The position numbers and the translations under genes are program-made. DNA of 64,000 nucleotides from Methanotrichaceae archaeon (lineage in GTDB: Archaea > Halobacteriota > Methanosarcinia > Methanotrichales > Methanotrichaceae): positions 32,001 to 96,000 of the forward strand of contig CAWEXU010000005.1 of assembly GCA_963813075.1 (NCBI GenBank), written 5' to 3'. The stretch's first letter is position 1. Each line of letters opens with the position of its first letter. The notes under the pieces were generated by a model. The model did no database searches and had not been told where the DNA came from. It saw only the letters and a list, made by a program, of their open reading frames with translations. Positions 2,909 to 61,058 of the stretch are shown piece by piece.

Positions 2909-4250
2909 TTGCCCATGGAGACGAGGCTTGATCCCTGGGGTGCAGTTCATGTGGAAGATTACACCAAGCTCTTTGAGGAGTTTGGGATATCGAGCTTCGA
3001 TGATATCCTTCCCCAGCTTGAAAATCCACATCGCTACATGAGGCGCAGGATAATATTCGGCCACAGAAACTACGATGCTGTGCTGGCGGCCATGAAAAGT
3101 CATCGGCCTTTCGCCGTCATGAGCGGCTTTATGCCCACCGGCAGGGCGCACTTCGGCCATATGATGGTCATGAATGAGATCATCTGGCACCAGCAGCAGG
3201 GCGGGGACGCCTTCGCTGCAGTGGCTGATATGGAGGCCCATGCGGTGCGGGGCATAAGCTGGGCGAAATGCAGAGAATTCGGCATCGAGGAGTATATCCT
3301 CAGCCTCATCGCCCTGGGCTTTGAGCCCAAAGAGAACAGCCACATCTATTTTCAGTCCAGCAATTATGATGTTCGAAACCTGGCCTTTGAGCTGGGGATA
3401 GAGGCCAACTTCTCCGAGGTCAGCGCCATCTATGGCTTCAGCGGAGAGACCTGCATCTCGCACATGGAGAGTGTGATGGCCCAGAGCGCCGATATCCTCC
3501 ATCCGCAGCTGGAGAAATATGGCGGGCCAAAGCCGGTGGTGATACCGGTGGGCGCAGATCAGGACCCTCATATCAAGCTCACCCGTGACCTCGCTTACCG
3601 CATGAGGAGGTTTCTGGTGGAGAGGAGAGGGGAGTACATAAGCATCCGGGGCAAGGCCGCCAGCCAGGAGTTGATGCAGGCGGCTGAATCGGCATTGCGG
3701 GAGACGGGACTGGGACAGGTCAAAAGGTACGAGGAGCATATCGACCTTGTCGACCTCCAGCTGAGAGAGGGCCGGAGCATCGATCAGGCCCAGGAGGAGG
3801 TCGAGGAGCTGATTATAATGCTCGAGACGAGAGCATGGCGAGTACGGTTTTATCCCTCCTGCCTCCATTTACCACCGCTTCATGACCGGCCTTACCGGGG
3901 GGAAGATGTCCTCCTCCAAGCCGGACAGCTACATCGCTCTGACTGAAGACCCCAAAGAGGCGGCAAAGAAGGTCATGAGGGCGATCACCGGCGGCAGGCA
4001 GAGCCTGGCCGAGCAGAAGAAGCTGGGAGGAGAGCCGGATAAGTGCTCCGTCTACGAGTTCCTCCTTTTCCATCTATCCGAGGACGATAAAGAGCTTTTA
4101 GAGCTGGACGCGGAATGCCGCAGCGGCAGGAGGATGTGCGGCACATGCAAAAAAGATGTGGCCGAGAGGATAGAGAGGTTCCTCTGCCAGCACCAGCAGG
4201 CCCGGGAAGCGGCGCGGGAGAGGCTGCCGGAGTTTGGAATAAAGCTCTAA
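2909..4250 (+). CDS. trpS: Tryptophan--tRNA ligase (frameshift near 3830)
   Basis: LDPWG N-terminus, HFGH (HIGH-like), [14 protein letters not shown] in second frame; frames join as ...[25 protein letters not shown]. Confidence 0.95.
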
Positions 4251-49272: not shown

Positions 49273-50383
49273 CTATTCAGCCTGGGCTTTATTCATAGCC
49301 CGGAGGGTGGCTCCAAACTCCGATTCCACAATTGAGCTCACTCCCATGGTCTTGGGGTGCAGATCGATCTCCACCATGACATGCTGATGGCCCAGATCGC
49401 GCAGGGGCTTGACCTGGCGGGGTCCGTTGGTGATGGAGAAGACCTCCAGGCCCTGCAGGGCGGACGCGGTCAGGGCATGGGGCACACCGGAAACCACGGC
49501 AAAGTCGTAGCTGCCCTCCTGGACCCGCTGAGCGATGATGTCCCCGGTAACCGGATACTCGTCCAGACCTCCGATAAGGCTGAACTGGACGCCCCTGTCC
49601 CGAAGGTCGCGAGCGACATTGAAGGCGTCCCTCCTCACCTTGGGCAGGCCGAGCTGATCGTCCAGGTTGGCCAGGGTGTCCACCTGCCCTCCAGCCACCT
49701 CGGCCACCGCGGCGGTGATGTCCGCAAACATATAGGCGGTCTCCTTCTTGGCATTGAGGATATTCAGGCCCCGCTTCCCCTGCCGGATCAGCTCCAACAG
49801 CCTTTCTGCCGCCTGATACTTCAGGTCGCCCCTCTCCGGAGCCAGGTACTCGGCGCTGGCCGCCCCTCTGCAGACGTTCCACCTCGGTCGCCTTCTCCAG
49901 CAGAGTCTTCTGGCGGACGAACTCCTGCTCATCTATTATCCCCAAATCCTTTGCCGCCTCAAGAGTGATGATCACCCCCTTGGTGTTATCCCGGTAGCCG
50001 GCATGAACCTCCACCTCCAGCACCGGTATATTCAGGTCCGCCTCTAAAACTGCCTGATGCAGGTCATCGCCGATGATCATGCTGCTGCAGGTACCGGATA
50101 TGGCCATCAGCCGGGGATGAAACAATTCCACCGCCTTCTTGAGAAGAGCAGTCAGCGGCTTGTGGCCGCCGAAGACGAACCCGGCTTCGTCCAGTGCTGT
50201 GGTCAGGACCCTCACTCCGTCCTCCTCCAGCAGCCGGGCGTGCTTGAAGCAGCATCCGCTCGGGCCGTGCAGTATGACCACCTCCGCCCCCAGGTCGCGC
50301 AGGGTGTATAAAGCGGCCACAATTGAACTCGGCCGGGGATGAAGCACATTCAAATTTTGCATTTCGCTTGCTATTATTGCCAT
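49273..50383 (-). CDS. cfbD: Ni-sirohydrochlorin a,c-diamide reductive cyclase catalytic subunit (frameshift near 49865)
   Basis: [37 protein letters not shown]; adjacent to cfbE/cfbA. Confidence 0.9.
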
Positions 50384-50388
50384 TATTA

Positions 50389-51645
50389 TCACCTGAAACA
50401 TTTAACTGCGCTGAGCAGCCTTTTGGGGCGAGAGAATTCTGCCTTCTTCAGCCCCTCTGCGAGGTCTCGGGCCGTCTTTGCCCCCAGCTCTGCCGCCAGG
50501 GGACGGAGCCTCTCACCCACCAGGATCAGCTCATCGATCTCCCCACGCCTCTCTCTGAGAAGCTCAGCCAGGAGGGGTATGTCCAGGCCCTCGCAGACCG
50601 TCTGGGCATCCTCTCCCACCACTGCAGCCAGATCGGGGCCCCGAGCCTTATCCAGGGCTCTTTCGATATCACTTACCTTAAGCCCGGAGTTGGAGCTATC
50701 GAATACCGTCCGCCCGTCCAGCCGCTCGATTTTCATCCGGCCAAAGAAGCCTCCAAATCCCTCCAGCGCCCTGGCCGTCTCTTCCTTTTCCACTCCCAGG
50801 AGCTCGGCAGCCGCAGCCGCCCCGGATATTGCCGTCTGATAGCTGGCAAAATCCAGATCCTCGCCTAAAGATAGGCTCAGCCTCTCCTCTCCATAGACCA
50901 GCTCATCCGGCAGGGCCTGAACCCGGCCCCCTTCAGCAAAGGAGATGTCTGGCGAGGTCCGGCAATCCGCGTTGGCCGCCAGCCTCGAGCCCCGACGGGC
51001 TAATGAGAGCATCTGCAGCTTGGCGGTGCTCGCCCACCTGGTGCCGGCGGCTATGCGGTAGTCGCCAGAGAAGCTGGTCAAGACCCCCAGATCAGCCAGG
51101 CCGGTGCCGCCCAAAGAGATCTCGCATATCAGGGCCTCGGCCCCGTGAGACAACGCCTCTTCTCTGGCCAGGATCACATTGGCGGGGGTGATGCTCAGCC
51201 CCTCTTTCAAGAGCTCTGGTCTGCCCTCTGACCAGATCTCCAGGCCGCGGGTGGTATGGGATAAGACCCTCTTTTGCCGGGATAAGATCATGGCCAGTAA
51301 AAGTGCAGTGGTGGTCTTGCTGTGCGTTCCTGTAACCTCGATCTTCCGCAGGTCATCAGGGATCGAGCCCATCATGAGCTCACCCACCGCCTGATGATGG
51401 CTGATGATCCTCTTACCAAGACCCCTCGCCTGGACCAGATGAGGATTGGCTGGCGAGAGGTGTATTGGGGCCACCACCTCATCGAAGGCATCAAGGCTGG
51501 TGGTGTGATGGTACACCTCCAGGGGCTGGGCCAGAATGCCGCTCTCGACCATCTTCCGGGCGATGACCTCTGCACCGTGGATGGTGTCCAGGACAGCTAC
51601 TCTAAAGATTCTTCTGCCCGCTTTATCGCCAGTGCTGCTATGCAT
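50389..51645 (-). CDS. cfbE: Coenzyme F430 synthetase (Mur ligase-like)
   Basis: [34 protein letters not shown]. Confidence 0.88.
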
Positions 51646-54475: not shown

Positions 54476-55303
54476 ATGATCTTTCCAGATAGCTACAAAT
54501 ATGTGGGCATAAAGGACCGGGAGGAGCGGGGCGCCCCCATCTACTTTTCCACCCAGTTTCTGATCAGCCGGGACGGCCCCAGCCTCTATGCAGTGAAAAG
54601 CAAGGGCTCGGGCTTCATGAGAGATGTTCAGGATCTGGAGCTGATCGCCTCCGGCCAAAAGATCGCTTTCTATCCGGAGAGGGTGGACACCAGGAACCGG
54701 ACCCTTCTGGTCGATCTGGCATATGATATCACCCGGGAGGGCAGGGCGAACACGGTGGTCTTCCAGGGCCCGGACGAGCACATCACCTTCGTTATGGACC
54801 CTGATCCCGGCCAGGTGCTGAAAATCGAGGTCATGGACGTCTCCCCCCCTGACCCTCCCTGGCTGATCTATGCTCTGCAGAGGCTGGAGGAGTGCGGAGT
54901 GCTGGGGGACCTGATGGTGAGGTTCGTGCCCAGGATTCTGAACCTGGAGAGCTTCTACTGCCCGCAAGTTTACTATCCCTGCCGGGCGGGGGGGCTGGGA
55001 AGGTCGCTGGACTCGGATCCTGTGGTCCACGAGCGGCCGAGGATCGTGGGCTGCGAGGTATCGCGGGAGATATTTCTGGCCAATAATCCGGGAAAGGAGC
55101 ACGAATTCATCAATGTCTGTCCCCTGCACTGCCGGGAGGCGGAGTTCGAGCCCCAGGGGCCGTTCATCACCCGCTGTTGCCGCTCCGAGCGTCGGGGGAG
55201 GACGAACAAGTGCGGCCAGCCGGGAATTGTTGTCCACTGGGGTGACGGCCCCTGGGAGATAGCGGAGGCGGTAAGGTGTCTGGTCAGGGATCTAAGAGGG
55301 TAG
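54476..55303 (+). CDS. Cys-rich hypothetical protein
   Basis: 275 aa; YPCR, VGCE, NVCPLHC, RCCR, VHWG. Confidence 0.75.
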   Translation: MIFPDSYKYVGIKDREERGAPIYFSTQFLISRDGPSLYAVKSKGSGFMRDVQDLELIASGQKIAFYPERVDTRNRTLLVDLAYDITREGRANTVVFQGPDEHITFVMDPDPGQVLKIEVMDVSPPDPPWLIYALQRLEECGVLGDLMVRFVPRILNLESFYCPQVYYPCRAGGLGRSLDSDPVVHERPRIVGCEVSREIFLANNPGKEHEFINVCPLHCREAEFEPQGPFITRCCRSERRGRTNKCGQPGIVVHWGDGPWEIAEAVRCLVRDLRG

Positions 55304-56261
55304 CGGTAGTCGCCGGGGACGGCATCGGCCCGGAGGTGGTGGATAGCGCCCTGGAGGTGTTGCGTGCCGCGGGCGCAGATCTAGATCTGGTTCGGGTGGA
55401 GGTGGGCCTGGGCCGCTGGAAGAGAACGGGCGAAGCCATGGGGGATGAGGACCTGGAGACAATCAGGGAGTGTGACTGCATTCTTTTTGGGGCGATCACC
55501 ACCCCCCCGGACCCCGGCTACCGGAGCGTTCTCTTGAGGATGCGAAAGGCTCTGGACCTTTATGCCAACATCCGGCCCTTTCAGTCTAAGGATCTTGATT
55601 TCATCATCGTGCGGGAGAACACCGAGGGGCTCTACTCCGGAATCGAAGAGGTGGGGGAGGATGTGTCGCGCACCACCAGGGTGATAACCCGCCTTGGTTC
55701 AGAGCGGATCGCAGAGGCGGCCTGCGACCTGGCGGCAAAGCGCCGCCAACTGACCATCATCCACAAGTCCAATGTGCTGAAAAGCGACTGGCTCTTTCTC
55801 CAGACCTGCCGGGAGGTGGCGGAGCGGCGGGGGGTTCCATACGAGGATATGCTGGTGGACGCTGCCGCCTACAACCTGGTGAGGAACCCCAAGAGATTCG
55901 ATGTCCTGGTCACCACCAACCTCTTCGGAGACATCCTGAGCGACGAGGCGGCGGGGGTGGTGGGGAGCCTGGGCCTGTGCGCCAGCGCCAACATCTGGGG
56001 ACGTCCCACGCTTTATTCGAGCCCATCCACGGCAGCGCGCCGGATATCGCTGGAAAGGGGATTGCCAACCCGATAGGAGCTATACGCAGCGCTGCCATGA
56101 TGATGAGCTGGCTTGGCGATGCCCGCGCAGCGAGCCGGATCGAGGCGGCAGTGAAAAGGGCGCTGGCCGCGGGGATGAAGACGCCGGATCTGGGCGGCAG
56201 ATGTTCTACCTCAGAGGTAACAGGAGCGGTGGTCGGATATCTGATGGCAGAAGGAAAATGA
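55276..56261 (+). CDS. aksF: Isocitrate/isopropylmalate dehydrogenase family, probably homoisocitrate dehydrogenase AksF (frameshift near 55995)
   Basis: [45 protein letters not shown]. Confidence 0.75.
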
Positions 56262-56306
56262 AAGGCTGGCGCAAAGTTCAATATTAATAAAAAAAGTGCA
56301 TCCGAC

Positions 56307-56426
56307 CTACTTCCTTCGCCCCATGCGGCGGGCGAACCAGCGGGACAGGCTCCAGGGGAGGCTGTTCTCCAGCCTTTTCCTGATCACTTCCGGGCTGTCT
56401 CTTCTCTTTTTTGACTGCCTGCTCAT
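56307..56426 (-). CDS. Putative small basic protein (39 aa)
   Basis: MSRQSKKRRDSPEVIRKRLENSLPWSLSRWFARRMGRRK, followed by a T-tract on the minus strand. Confidence 0.45.
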   Translation of the reverse strand: MSRQSKKRRDSPEVIRKRLENSLPWSLSRWFARRMGRRK

Positions 56427-56565
56427 GAAATCCACTCTGTGCAAATTATCTATTCCCTATGGTTAATACCTGATGGTCCAGGATACCTTATGGTCAGGGC
56501 GAAGGGGAAAGGAATGGAGCCCTTGTCCTCCCTTCACCTCTCCAGATCCATCTGGCCGGCAGCTT

Positions 56566-57803
56566 TCAGCAGACACTCTCCTCCAGCTTCCTTACCATCT
56601 CCTCCGCCCTCCGTCCCACCTGGACTGGATCCACGGGCACTCTGGCCACGCCGCTCTCTATGGCCGCCCGGGCCACCGCTTCTGCCACTGCCGGGACCAC
56701 TCTTCTGTCCAGAGGGGAGGGGATGATGCTCTCCCGGCTGGGATTTTGCACCAGGCCGGCTATCGCCCGTGAGGCAGCCATCTTCATCTGTTCATTGATC
56801 TCGCTGGCCCGCACGTCCAGATGCACCCCGGAATATGCCCGGAAATCCCAGGACATTGTTCACCTGATTGGGATAGTCGGAGCGGCCGGTGGCCACCACC
56901 GCTGCCCCAGCCTCCTCGGCCAGCTCGGGCATGATCTCGGGCTCTGGGTTGGCCAGGGCGAATACCACCGCGTCGCCAGCCATGCTCCTGACCATCTCCG
57001 GGGTTACGATGCCCGCCACAGAGAGGCCCAAAAAGACGTCCGCTCCCCGAATGGCGTCTTTCAGGCTGCCTGTGACATTGCGGGGATTGGTAAGGGCGGC
57101 GATCTCTTGCTTGGAGGGGTTCAGGTCCGGTCGAGATCTTGTGAATCACCCCCCTGCTATCGCAGAGGATGACATCCTTTGCCCCAAAGCTCAAGAGGAA
57201 CCGGGTGACGGCCACCCCCGCTGCTCCCGCCCCGCTCACTGCCACCTTCAGATCCGCAAAGTTTTTTCCCACCAGGTGGAGGGCATTGATCAGGGCGGCC
57301 AGGGCGACCACTGCCGTGCCATGCTGGTCATCATGAAATACCGGGATCTTCAGGGCCTTCTTCAGCCTCTCCTCCACCTCAAAGCAGCGGGGAGCGCTGA
57401 TATCCTCCAGGTTTATCCCTCCGAAGACCGGCTCGATCATGGCCACGGTCCTCACTATATCCTCTGGATCCTGAGAGGCGACAGCTATGGGAAAGGCATC
57501 GATCCCCGCGAAGTTCTTGAACAGTATCGCTTTGCCCTCCATCACCGGTATGGAGGCCAGAGCGCCGATGTCGCCCAAACCCAGCACGGCAGTTCCGTCT
57601 GTTACCACAGCTACCAGATTTCCCTTGGAGGTGTAGCGGTAGACGTCATCTGGATTCATCTCGATCTCGCGACAGGGTGCGGCCACCCCTGGGGTATAGG
57701 CCAGGCTCAAATCCCGGCTGGTGGCGCAGGGCACCTTGCTGTGCACGGCAATCTTTCCTGTGGCTGCTTCATGAAAGGCTAGTGCTTCTTCTCGAAGGGA
57801 CAT
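56566..57803 (-). CDS. NAD(P)-dependent malic enzyme (frameshifts near 57135 and 56830)
   Basis: [56 protein letters not shown]. Confidence 0.92.
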
Positions 57804-57840
57804 AACATACTCCTGAGGGAGGCATTCAGGGGAGCAACAG

Positions 57841-57848
57841 ATATAAAG
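57841..57848 (+). promoter_or_regulatory. TATA box of tRNA-Ser/rpl40e unit
   Basis: ATATAAAG about 30 nt upstream of the tRNA 5' end. Confidence 0.6.
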
Positions 57849-57874
57849 CATGGGCAAAAGGGAGTCTAACCTGA

Positions 57875-58024
57875 GCCGGGGTGGCAGAGCGGACAAATTC
57901 CGCCGGGCAAAAGCCGGTGGAAGTTCAAACGCGGCAGGCTCGAGACCTGTTGTCCCTTCCAGGGACACTTGGGTTCAAATTGACGGGTCGCAAGAGACCC
58001 GCCAGGAAAATCCCAACCCCGGCG
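57875..58024 (+). tRNA. tRNA-Ser(CGA) with two non-canonical introns (about 57897-57928 at 21/22; 57980-58010 at 59/60)
   Basis: Acceptor GCCGGGG/CCCCGGC+G, anticodon arm GCAGG-CTCGAGA-CCTGT, long variable arm TGTCCC-TTCCA-GGGACA, T stem TTGGG/CCCAA; two hairpin insertions flanked by BHB-like motifs. Confidence 0.88.
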
Positions 58025-58080
58025 CTAATAATAAGCAAAGTTTCATATCAGAGTAAGATGCGAAGAAAGAGCTGATTATT

Positions 58081-58230
58081 ATGGCTAGATTTCCAGAAGC
58101 AGAAAACAGAATCTTGAACCTCAAGATATGCATGCGCTGCAATGCGCGAAACCCGGTAAAAGCTACCCGCTGCCGCAAATGCGGCTACGAAGGCCTGAGG
58201 ATGAAGTCCAAGGAGAACAAGACCGCTTAG
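58081..58230 (+). CDS. rpl40e: 50S ribosomal protein L40e
   Basis: Manual translation [49 protein letters not shown] (below ORF-track cutoff). Confidence 0.95.
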
Positions 58231-58237
58231 ACCTTAA

Positions 58238-58996
58238 ATGACCTTTGAGATGGGCAGGGTTGAGCTGCACCTGCGGGATGCCATAAAAAAGCATGGAGCA
58301 GGCCACTTAACCCTTATCGATCCCGATTCCCAAAGCCCCCAGGAAGCAGGGAGGATGGCCCAGGCGGCCAGCCAGGGGGGGACGGACGCCATCATGGTGG
58401 GTGGCTCGGTGGGGGCGACCGGCGCCCTCCTGCATGAGACCGTGGCCGAGATCAAGCGGGTGACCGATCTCCCGGTCATTCTCTTTCCGGCAAGTGTAGC
58501 TGGGCTATGCGAGAACGCCGATGCCGTCTTCTTCATGAGCCTGCTCAACAGCCGCTCACCCAGCTACCTCATTGAGAACCAGGCTCTGGGAGCACCGCTG
58601 ATTCTGCGCTACCGCCTGGAGGCTCTGCCCATGGCCTATATCATCATCGAGCCCGGAGGGACGGTGGGCTATGTGGGCGATGCCCGCCTGATACCCAGAA
58701 AGAAGCCGGAGCTTGCTCTGGCATATGCTCTGGCGGGAAAGTACCTGGGCATGAGGCTGGTCTATCTGGAGGCCGGTTCCGGTGCGGACTCGCCGGTGCC
58801 CGCGAGCATGGTGGCCCTGACCAAGAGACTGCTGGGCGACGTGCTGGTCATTGTGGGCGGAGGCATAAGAAGCGGCGCGTCAGCGGCAGAGCTGGTGGCC
58901 GCCGGAGCGGATCTTATAGTGACGGGCACAGCTGTGGAGAAGAGCAAGGATATATCCTCATTTATCTTTGAGCTGACCTCAGCCATTCGCAGGTAG
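58238..58996 (+). CDS. Geranylgeranylglyceryl phosphate synthase
   Basis: LIDPD, MVGGS, FMSLLNS, YLEAGSGA, VGGGIR. Confidence 0.93.
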   Translation: MTFEMGRVELHLRDAIKKHGAGHLTLIDPDSQSPQEAGRMAQAASQGGTDAIMVGGSVGATGALLHETVAEIKRVTDLPVILFPASVAGLCENADAVFFMSLLNSRSPSYLIENQALGAPLILRYRLEALPMAYIIIEPGGTVGYVGDARLIPRKKPELALAYALAGKYLGMRLVYLEAGSGADSPVPASMVALTKRLLGDVLVIVGGGIRSGASAAELVAAGADLIVTGTAVEKSKDISSFIFELTSAIRR

Positions 58997-59002
58997 CCCT
59001 TC

Positions 59003-60148
59003 GTGTCATCGGATATTTTGACTTTTCTCGATTCATCAAACGTTGACGGCTTTCTCTTTGTGGGAGACAGCATATGCAACTCGGATATGTATTACCTCTC
59101 CCATTTTCTCGCTGGGGACAGGTTCGCCATCCTCTTTCAGGAGAAGACTGCGATTCTCGTCTCCTCTATGGAGAAGGGCAGAGCAAAAAAGGAATCCTGT
59201 GCAGATGAGGTTCTAAGCACCCAGGACTACCATATAATGGAAAAGCTGAAGAGCTGCACTAAACCGGAAGAGGCCTATTCAGAGGTGCTGAAGGATTTTC
59301 TGAGGGATCACGGCATATTGCGCCTGGGCGTGGCATACAGCTTTCCCACAGGGATATTCCAGCCTTTATCCCGGCATTTCGATATTCAGGTCCTGGAGAG
59401 CCCGGTCCGGAAGGCAAGGGCAACCAAGAGCCCCCAGGAGATCGAGTGCATCGCCTCTGCCCAGAGGGCCTGCGAGAGGGCGATGAGGCGGGCAGTGGAT
59501 CTTATCGCCAGCTCTGAACCGCGGGGGGATGTCCTCTGCCGCCAGGGCCAGCCCATCACCTCTGAGCAGGTGCGATCGGCTATTGATATCTCCCTCCTGG
59601 AGGATGGCTGCGAGGCGGCAGACACCATCGTCGCCGGCGGGACCCAGGCTGCCGATCCCCATGCGCGAGGGACCGGTCCTCTGCCCGCCAACTCTCCCAT
59701 TGTCATCGACATCTTTCCCCGTTCCAAGACTCACCGCTACTATGCAGATATGACCCGCACCGTCCTGCGAGGTGAGCCCCCTTTAGAGGTGAAAGAGCTC
59801 TACGATTCCGTTCTTGCCGCCCAGGAGGCAGGGATCGGTGCCATTCGGAACGGCATATCTGGAGAGGAGGTCCATTCCATTGTATCCGACGTTTTCCTGG
59901 AAATGGGCTATCCGGAAAGGGATGGCTGCGGTTTCACCCATTCCACCGGCCACGGCGTGGGCCTGGATGTGCATGAGCAGCCCTCCCTGGGCGAATACGG
60001 GGAGAGGCTGAAAAGCTCACAGGTGGTAACGGTGGAGCCGGGCCTGTACTATCCGGATATCGGCGGAGTTCGGCTGGAGGACCTGGTGGTGGTGAGGGAT
60101 AGAGGATGCCAGAACCTCACCCGCTTTGAAAAAGACCTCGTCCTCTGA
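59003..60148 (+). CDS. Xaa-Pro aminopeptidase (M24B)
   Basis: DIFP..Y.ADMTRT, HSTGHGVGLDVHE, TVEPGLY, GVRLED. Confidence 0.92.
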   Translation: MSSDILTFLDSSNVDGFLFVGDSICNSDMYYLSHFLAGDRFAILFQEKTAILVSSMEKGRAKKESCADEVLSTQDYHIMEKLKSCTKPEEAYSEVLKDFLRDHGILRLGVAYSFPTGIFQPLSRHFDIQVLESPVRKARATKSPQEIECIASAQRACERAMRRAVDLIASSEPRGDVLCRQGQPITSEQVRSAIDISLLEDGCEAADTIVAGGTQAADPHARGTGPLPANSPIVIDIFPRSKTHRYYADMTRTVLRGEPPLEVKELYDSVLAAQEAGIGAIRNGISGEEVHSIVSDVFLEMGYPERDGCGFTHSTGHGVGLDVHEQPSLGEYGERLKSSQVVTVEPGLYYPDIGGVRLEDLVVVRDRGCQNLTRFEKDLVL

Positions 60149-60173
60149 AAAAAGGATTAGAGATTTGGTGATA

Positions 60174-61058
60174 ATGATGGACGCAGAAATTCTAGATAAT
60201 TATCGGAAGGCCGGACGGATTCTGGCCGAAGTGCTGGAAGAGGCAAGGCCGAGGGTAGATGTAGGGGTGCCCCTGCTGGAGGTGGGCGAGTTCGTGGAGG
60301 AGGCCATAAGGTCAAAAGGCGGACTGCCTGCATTTCCCTGCAACATATCTTTAGACCGGAGCGCAGCTCATTATACTCCCTCGCCAAAGGACGAGAGCGT
60401 CTTTGCCGAGAATATGGTAAAGCTGGATGTGGGAGTGCATGTGGACGGCTACATAGCCGATGCCGCCATCACCATAGATCTCGGCGGCCACGAGGATCTG
60501 GTCCTCGCTGCTCAGGCGGGCCTTGATGCCGCCCTGGAGCTGGTAGGGCCAGGGGTGAGCACGGCTGATATTGGCAAAGCAATAGAGGATGCCATAGTTG
60601 GCTACGGGTACAAGCCGGTGTACAATCTGACCGGGCACGGACTCTCCCGTTATACTGCTCATGACCTGCCAGCGGTGCCGAACAGGGGCATGGATAAAGG
60701 GGTAACCCTAAAGGAAGGGGATGTCATTGCCATCGAGCCCTTCGCCACCAATGGCTCAGGGAGAATCAGCGAGGCGCCCATCACCGAGATCTATGGATTT
60801 TCCGGCCCGCGGCCCCAGAGGCTCCCCGCGGCCAGAGCGCTGATGAAGGAGATAATGGAGAGCTACAAAACCCTTCCCTTCGCCAGACGGTGGTTGAAAG
60901 GGGAACGGGCGGAGTACTCATTGATGCATCTCGTGCGGAGCGGGGCTGTGCACGGATATCCGGTTCTTTGGGAGGTCGAGGGGGCACTGGTCTCCCAGGC
61001 GGAGCATACGGTCCTGATTCTGGAAAATGGATGCGAGGTTACAACCAGGCTCCGCTAA
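60174..61058 (+). CDS. map: Type II methionine aminopeptidase
   Basis: AFPCN..AAHYTP, KLDVGVHVDGYIAD, LTGH, AIEPF, QAEHT. Confidence 0.95.
   Translation: MMDAEILDNYRKAGRILAEVLEEARPRVDVGVPLLEVGEFVEEAIRSKGGLPAFPCNISLDRSAAHYTPSPKDESVFAENMVKLDVGVHVDGYIADAAITIDLGGHEDLVLAAQAGLDAALELVGPGVSTADIGKAIEDAIVGYGYKPVYNLTGHGLSRYTAHDLPAVPNRGMDKGVTLKEGDVIAIEPFATNGSGRISEAPITEIYGFSGPRPQRLPAARALMKEIMESYKTLPFARRWLKGERAEYSLMHLVRSGAVHGYPVLWEVEGALVSQAEHTVLILENGCEVTTRLR

Follow-up and report, generated by a model that had tools for sequence, protein, structure and literature searches.

Among archaeal splicing endonucleases (EndA), the alpha4 and alpha2 enzymes are described in the available text of PMC4033280 as cutting canonical BHB motifs only, with Korarchaeum as the sole alpha2 archaeon having non-canonical introns and M. 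kandleri and M. thermautotrophicus as the multi-intron Euryarchaeota named. This review and others, in their accessible passages, confine efficient removal of relaxed introns to the (alpha-beta)2 and epsilon2 enzymes; the same enzyme rule is restated, and introns at position 59/60 are documented, in the accessible sections of PMC3239211, PMC12397907, PMC6379350 and PMC4090602. According to the available part of PMC5829648, the A. fulgidus alpha'2 EndA gave no clear removal of the D-loop HBh' intron of M. kandleri in vitro, and the loop-less M. kandleri EndA removes this intron inefficiently and slowly, with mature tRNA present in RNA-Seq. The pre-tRNA-Glu(UUC) of Methanopyrus kandleri shares with the gene described here a D-loop HBh' intron, the presence of two introns and an enzyme without a specificity loop. 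Its D-loop intron lies at position 20b/21, its second intron is canonical and its enzyme is an (alpha-beta)2 heterotetramer, whereas the present gene is interrupted at 21/22 by its D-loop intron, has two non-canonical introns and belongs to a host whose enzyme is of the alpha'2 homodimer type. Introns at 59/60, like the T-loop intron reported below, interrupt pre-tRNA-Cys(GCA) and pre-tRNA-Pro(GGG) of ARMAN-2 (Ca. Micrarchaeum acidiphilum), in which two non-canonical introns likewise occur in one tRNA (PMC3239211, available text). That organism has an epsilon2 EndA with an ASL loop and 56% interrupted tRNA genes, whereas the present host has an EndA without the loop and one non-canonical gene among the tRNAs examined. 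The A. fulgidus alpha'2 EndA (PDB 1R0V, 2GJW) resembles the host enzyme in its two-unit design and catalytic residues and is reported, in the accessible literature, to be limited to canonical BHB, or to BHL at 37/38 in a full pre-tRNA. The host enzyme differs in being longer (350 against 305 aa), in having additional residues in its N-terminal unit, and in co-occurring with a conserved relaxed D-loop intron.

The locus lies in a window of 64,000 nucleotides, the whole stretch of DNA that was analysed, from a Methanotrichaceae archaeon. The tRNA-Ser(CGA) gene occupies positions 57875-58024, and its features and flanking elements are as follows.

57841..57848, plus strand: putative tRNA promoter element resembling a TATA box; identical 8-mer in same-genus loci
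57875..57896, plus strand: exon 1, tRNA positions 1-21; junction agrees with intronless orthologues
57891-57894 with 57923-57926, plus strand: intron 1 central helix; paired in 125/125 distinct genes
57895-57897 and 57927-57929, plus strand: intron 1 bulges
57897..57928, plus strand: intron 1, 32 nt, D-loop position 21/22; relaxed HBh' motif
57929..57979, plus strand: exon 2, positions 22-59, comprising the anticodon arm, long variable arm and 5' part of the T arm
57941-57943, plus strand: anticodon CGA, inside exon 2
57974-57977 with 58005-58008, plus strand: intron 2 central helix; A.G at the fourth pair
57978-57980 and 58009-58011, plus strand: intron 2 bulges; the T-stem is the exon-side helix
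57980..58010, plus strand: intron 2, 31 nt, T-loop position 59/60; near-strict hBHBh'
58011..58024, plus strand: exon 3, positions 60-73, with G73 discriminator; CCA not encoded
58081..58230, plus strand: ribosomal protein L40e gene (NCBIfam NF003161, 87.9 bits)

Re-reading of the sequence bore out the coordinates of the gene and of both introns given in the initial annotation, together with its description of central helix 1 (GGAC/GTTC, with two AAA bulges), of central helix 2 (TTCA/GGAA, with an A.G fourth pair and AAT bulges) and of a canonical 37/38 site that is uninterrupted in this gene. The gene had also been described as a complete two-intron tRNA-Ser(CGA), and ARAGORN identified the 87-nt in-silico product as tRNA-Ser(cga). 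This call does not fix the intron boundaries, because 277 of 3916 double deletions of equal sizes are also accepted as tRNA-Ser(cga). The predicted boundaries rest on the bulge rule (a cut after the second base) and are confirmed by comparison with intronless orthologues (L197, L204-L206). The 150-nt precursor folds at z = -5.0, and none of 200 shuffles was equally stable. Two irregularities were missing from the initial annotation: the D-stem contains just two Watson-Crick pairs, with an A12.C23 mismatch, and in the stem of intron 2 the third pair is an A.C mismatch. The A12.C23 mismatch is common to 117 of 125 orthologues and to the intronless orthologue L206, and its interpretation as an intron-linked adaptation or editing site was rejected, since intronless genes can have C23 and intron-bearing ones U23. 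Copying between intron 1 and intron 2 was without support, their mutual identity being 0.47.

Parsing of 157 of 176 loci yielded 125 distinct genes, 66 with two introns and 59 with intron 1 only; the other 19 loci comprised EndA loci, intronless or unrelated genes, or incomplete ones. The search pattern fixed exon anchors, so that exon conservation is partly built in, and left intron-side bases free. In intron 1, none of the four positions of the exon-side helix h pairs in 124 of the 125 genes, which upholds the earlier description of a relaxed motif, and the intron-side helix h' reaches at least 3 bp in all 125. On these pairings intron 1 is classed as a relaxed HBh' intron that falls short of strict hBHBh' for lack of the exon-side helix. 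The four intron-side bases of its central helix, free in the pattern, pair in every one of the 125 genes, in three variants. Intron 2 differs in that the T-stem and an intron stem flank its two 3-nt bulges in the 66 two-intron genes. Its fourth central pair is A.G in 53 genes, A-T in 11 and another purine pair in 2, and the motif is near-strict rather than strict because four standard central pairs are present in only 11/66. Mean exon identity to the window across the 66 genes was 0.977 (minimum 0.93), against 0.614 for intron 1 and 0.718 for intron 2. The first three stem pairs of intron 1 are kept in 119/119 distinct introns and the first two of intron 2 in 54/54, the stems change on both sides (T-A to C-G, G-C to C-G), and for several pairs the observed pairing was reached by 0/1000 shuffles, a comparison in which kinship among genes is ignored. 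This pattern of substitution demonstrates selection on both of the predicted BHB motifs. The modelled fold would count against selection on the BHB motifs, and likewise against slow cutting by an ordinary enzyme as proposed below: the conformer bearing both BHB motifs is predicted at -66.6 kcal/mol, 8 kcal/mol above the minimum-energy fold (-74.6 kcal/mol), with predicted pair probabilities of 0.12-0.14 for central helix 1 and 0.02-0.03 for central helix 2.

The element was found in 33 of 36 other genomes of the same genus, and a pattern scan of GTDB genomes returned at least 119 loci. Among the matches listed, 57 were titled Methanothrix, Methanosaeta, Methanocrinis or Methanotrichaceae (53 complete and 4 at contig ends), and both introns were present in all 53 complete loci. 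The other 62 matches listed comprised 53 with the D-loop intron only, 7 broadly titled records with both introns and 2 that were unscorable. The D-loop-only loci among the matches listed came from Methanolobus, Methanococcoides, Methanohalophilus, Methanohalobium, Methanosalsum, ANME-2 and broadly titled records. Among the matches listed, Methanotrichaceae was the only family in which intron 2 was found. On the strength of named loci such as L108 (Methanothrix sp.), whose exons equal those of the window gene and whose intron 2 is nearly identical, the host is probably a methanogen of the Methanothrix type. At the level of the phylum, the exon type was present in 46 of 221 genomes, with the D-loop intron in 35 of these (families f1, f3 and f7) and absent from 11. 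Genus g4 has a canonical 37/38 intron instead, and genus g6 (L172-L176) has an intronless Ser(CGA) gene unrelated in sequence to the class orthologue, which suggests gene replacement. Read from presence and absence, intron 1 appears as the older and patchy element, and the ancestor of Methanotrichaceae is the likely point at which the T-loop intron was acquired. Several loci depart from these forms. Family f7, of another class (L198-L203), carries a D-loop intron of 17-18 nt together with a variable-arm insert of approximately 32 nt, in hosts that also carry one two-unit EndA. Genome G053 of genus g6 has a second, degenerate Ser(CGA) copy 9 kb away. In an ANME-2 record (L168) a 60-nt insert interrupts the T-stem of the D-loop-intron gene, which also lacks its acceptor 3' end, with a second copy of the gene start approximately 240 nt downstream.

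An identical TATA-like 8-mer was located 33-34 nt upstream of the gene in all 32 same-genus loci checked, that of the window included. The L40e gene starts 56 nt downstream of the tRNA gene on the same strand and is followed by a GGGP synthase gene; the tRNA-L40e arrangement also occurs in L004 and L021 and was not seen in 10 loci of other families. Co-transcription of L40e with the tRNA gene is possible. Upstream, a malic enzyme gene (window 56566-57803, minus strand) diverges from the tRNA gene and contains two frame changes, its orthologue in L004 being intact; these changes represent either assembly indels or a pseudogene. Further away, an ORF at window positions 49289-50401 (minus strand), which we take to resemble a NifD-like coenzyme F430 biosynthesis subunit, has an unlikely sequence after approximately 180 residues, probably through a frameshift. 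The frameshifts near the gene in this assembly, the weak D-stem with its A12.C23 pair and the lack of an orthologue in genus g6, which has the unrelated intronless Ser(CGA) gene instead, could be taken to mean that the gene is not matured, being a decaying gene, a non-tRNA structured RNA or an assembly artefact, with tRNA-Ser(UGA) reading all UCG codons. This is very improbable: the exons are near-invariant and the anticodon intact across the phylum-wide set, the BHB pairs and promoter element are kept, A12.C23 also occurs in an intronless orthologue and the inserts recur in dozens of independent assemblies.

Another intact tRNA-Ser(CGA), which the initial annotation had named as refuting evidence if it went together with the absence of a spliced product, was looked for, and no second Ser(CGA) gene was found in the host genome (G000, 83% complete). 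Nor was a Ser(CGA) gene with an intact T-loop found in 5 near-complete genomes of the family, using a pattern similar to one that detects the g6 genes. The usual archaeal tRNA types number 46; 44 of them were counted in the host genome, including Ser(GCU), Ser(GGA) and Ser(UGA), and a search of that 83% complete assembly for hidden Arg(UCU) and Leu(GAG) genes was negative. The tRNA-Ser(UGA) gene (G000:C31:257062-257180) contains a canonical intron and is mis-called tRNA-Ala(UGC) by ARAGORN. In a crude set of 690 long ORFs, UCG accounts for 3067 of 24575 serine codons (12.5%). A degenerate tRNA-Pro-like fragment is present on contig C18 of the host (3050-3092). The tRNA-Arg(CCU) gene, intronless in G000, G026 and G247, measures 123-135 nt in two sister genera (L241, L242, L243; G111, G137, G167; locus positions approximately 1440-1580), where it apparently contains two nested or tandem D-loop introns, an inner one of 15-29 nt and an outer one of 31-33 nt; these appear to share one cut site near position 17, and their sequential removal would give a normal 75-nt gene.

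A euryarchaeal-type enzyme had been expected in this host, and a single alpha'2 EndA was found. The host genome contains one EndA gene (contig C20) encoding 350 aa, with two PF01974 units in one frame (NF006795, 515.7 bits). A single two-unit frame was likewise found in 15 of 15 further genomes, and neither a second EndA nor a separate beta-subunit gene was found in the 83% complete host genome or in those 15. Judged by its sequence the host EndA is of the alpha'2 type, its structural and catalytic units standing in tandem. Among solved structures it matches the A. fulgidus alpha'2 EndA best (E 2e-39), and the catalytic Tyr, His and Lys of the two align. A CSL/ASL (L1/L2) insertion is absent: the place at which the CSL-grafted chimera 3P1Y carries its loop is without an insert, and the length at that site is that of A. 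fulgidus. As regards the C-terminal L3 insertion of the Nanoarchaeum/ARMAN enzymes, no sizeable insert was seen relative to A. fulgidus, M. kandleri and M. jannaschii, the three chains covered. Alignment of 14 of 16 catalytic units (those of G064 and G065 lying outside it) revealed no residue pattern separating intron-bearing from intronless hosts. In the EndA of G060 and G053, Gly occupies a position that is Arg in the others, three residues ahead of the conserved cation-pi Arg. The host genome carries two RtcB genes (G000:C5:6195-7487 and G000:C30:479835-481127), whose scores and frame lengths are almost equal, reflecting either a recent duplication or an assembly duplication.

With the anatomy and conservation of the gene, its position as the only tRNA-Ser(CGA) found in the genome, one alpha'2 EndA and RtcB demonstrated, the favoured reading, to which we give a probability of roughly 60%, is that intron 2, as a near-strict BHB, and intron 1, as an HBh' processed slowly, are both removed by the ordinary alpha'2 EndA, with RtcB joining the exons. 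Because its bulges are flanked by helices on either side, intron 2 needs little relaxation, leaving intron 1 alone to strain the textbook rule. One purine-purine pair notwithstanding, the T-loop intron would be processed as a normal BHB. In the D-loop intron the intron-side helix alone is present, which would place its 3' cut in an open loop, and this intron may be cut slowly by residual EndA activity, by analogy with the loop-less Methanopyrus enzyme; after excision the exons would be rejoined by RtcB. The in vitro result with A. fulgidus EndA and the rule of the reviews, both given above, count against this reading. Slow maturation of tRNA-Ser(CGA) would be tolerable because UCG makes up only the share of serine codons given above and a tRNA-Ser(UGA) gene is present to buffer the demand. 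Wobble reading of UCG by tRNA-Ser(UGA) is likely but assumed, on general grounds and from a description in yeast. None of the 23 sequencing runs listed for L004, a locus of the same genus, was marked as RNA, and the eight examined consisted entirely of contigs, seven probably from DNA and one of unrecorded kind, and three of the eight contained the unspliced stretch in one piece. The single joint skipping the D-loop intron, in run X9, was rejected as splicing, as it lies on a 22.6-kb contig with unrelated flanks and represents the intronless gene of another organism.

A both-BHB conformer that is not the predicted ground state could also point to a strict enzyme for which intron 1 becomes a good substrate through refolding after removal of intron 2, through base modification or through a helper protein or RNA supplying the missing exon-side helix. 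For the same problem, Kaneta et al. name folding, modification and bound proteins as possible causes (PMC5829648, available text), and a slipped register offers the possible exon-side pairs G15-C25 and C16-G24 with a 4-nt bulge. We consider this quite unlikely: intron 1 stands alone in 59 of the 125 genes, so that removal of intron 2 is no general requirement, and the neighbouring genes are those for L40e, GGGP synthase and malic enzyme.

The initial annotation had instead proposed a broader EndA specificity, and the comparison of sequences may be read in that way, with the alpha'2 EndA of this lineage truly broadened without a CSL or ASL loop. Candidate determinants would be the longer, less degenerate N-terminal unit, a feature absent from A. 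fulgidus EndA, or a conserved lysine of the loop site (G-K-P), present after the glycine in 12 of the 14 catalytic units aligned. In alpha'2 relatives inserts recur at 21/22, at 59/60 and in the variable arm, and apparent nested D-loop introns occur in tRNA-Arg(CCU) of 3/5 family genomes tested; these recurrent inserts, in tRNA-Arg(CCU) and the f7 variable arm, would fit a real broadening better than mere residual activity. The same lysine and architecture are, however, present in genomes without the intron (G060, G053, G063, G233), the lysine is absent from the intron-bearing G037, and no other non-canonical intron was found among the host tRNAs examined, unlike the situation in the intron-rich hosts of loop-bearing enzymes. 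A true broadening is improbable, if deserving of some weight. A related and more general proposition, tentative and on balance doubtful, is that the loop-less alpha'2 endonuclease of Methanosarcinia and relatives efficiently removes both relaxed and nested D-loop introns by an undescribed route. If true, it would break the published rule that specificity loops license non-canonical tRNA introns, and tRNA-Ser(CGA) would stand as an enduring hot spot for introns (at 21/22, at 37/38, in the variable arm and at 59/60) in cultivable methanogens.

The gene itself is ordinary and of a known kind, with orthologues in a published annotation table. Its novelty does not stand, as Ser-CGA genes have already been predicted by tRNAscan-SE 2.0 in three Methanosaeta species. 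The available supplement of PMC8450103 lists Ser-CGA genes of 151 nt (69.0 bits) in Methanosaeta concilii GP6, 150 nt (81.3 bits) in M. harundinacea 6Ac and 153 nt (81.8 bits) in M. thermophila PT, each missed by v1.3, and 119-124-nt Ser-CGA genes in the Methanosarcinaceae genera Methanohalobium, Methanohalophilus, Methanococcoides and Methanosalsum. These predictions share isoacceptor and family with the window gene, and their lengths are those of the two-intron and D-loop-only forms; the named M. harundinacea loci L070, L151 and L155 measure 150 nt and contain both introns. The rows, as available, give coordinates and scores and are silent on intron positions and motif types, on distribution and on the enzyme, and the available main text of PMC8450103 does not mention these genes. 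The accessible text of PMC3218864 refers to non-canonical introns in three thermophilic methanogens of the Euryarchaeota, left unnamed there and possibly including Methanosaeta thermophila, and that of PMC2237900 places M. thermophila and M. burtonii in a SPLITS data set. The available portions of PMC3146512 and of a 2026 Asgard preprint contain nothing on this tRNA-Ser(CGA) gene, and the literature covered, which includes few subscription papers, yielded no study of the gene or of the enzyme conflict in these methanogens. Earlier tRNA-intron papers (Sugahara 2007; Sugahara 2008; Marck and Grosjean 2003), GtRNAdb or SPLITSdb may already list the intron positions. The value of the locus lies in its being a counter-example, with a relaxed D-loop intron kept in more than 100 distinct genes of alpha'2 methanogens, against the strict-motif rule of the reviews. 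It also offers a small and direct test of the capacity of a loop-less enzyme, since relatives with and without the intron allow pre-tRNA/enzyme crosses.

The suggestion that default annotation may miss the gene proved right for some programs and wrong for another. ARAGORN misses it in both window and genome, and a relaxed ARAGORN score produces hundreds of false calls; Rfam gave 0 matches in 55000-61000, and tRNAscan-SE 1.3 misses the orthologues that tRNAscan-SE 2.0 predicts in relatives. Pipelines built on ARAGORN, Rfam or tRNAscan-SE 1.3 would hence undercount tRNA-Ser(CGA) in these widespread methanogens. ARAGORN also twice called a repeated hairpin in the host genome Leu(CAG) (G000:C31:37788-37867 and C6:68266-68344).
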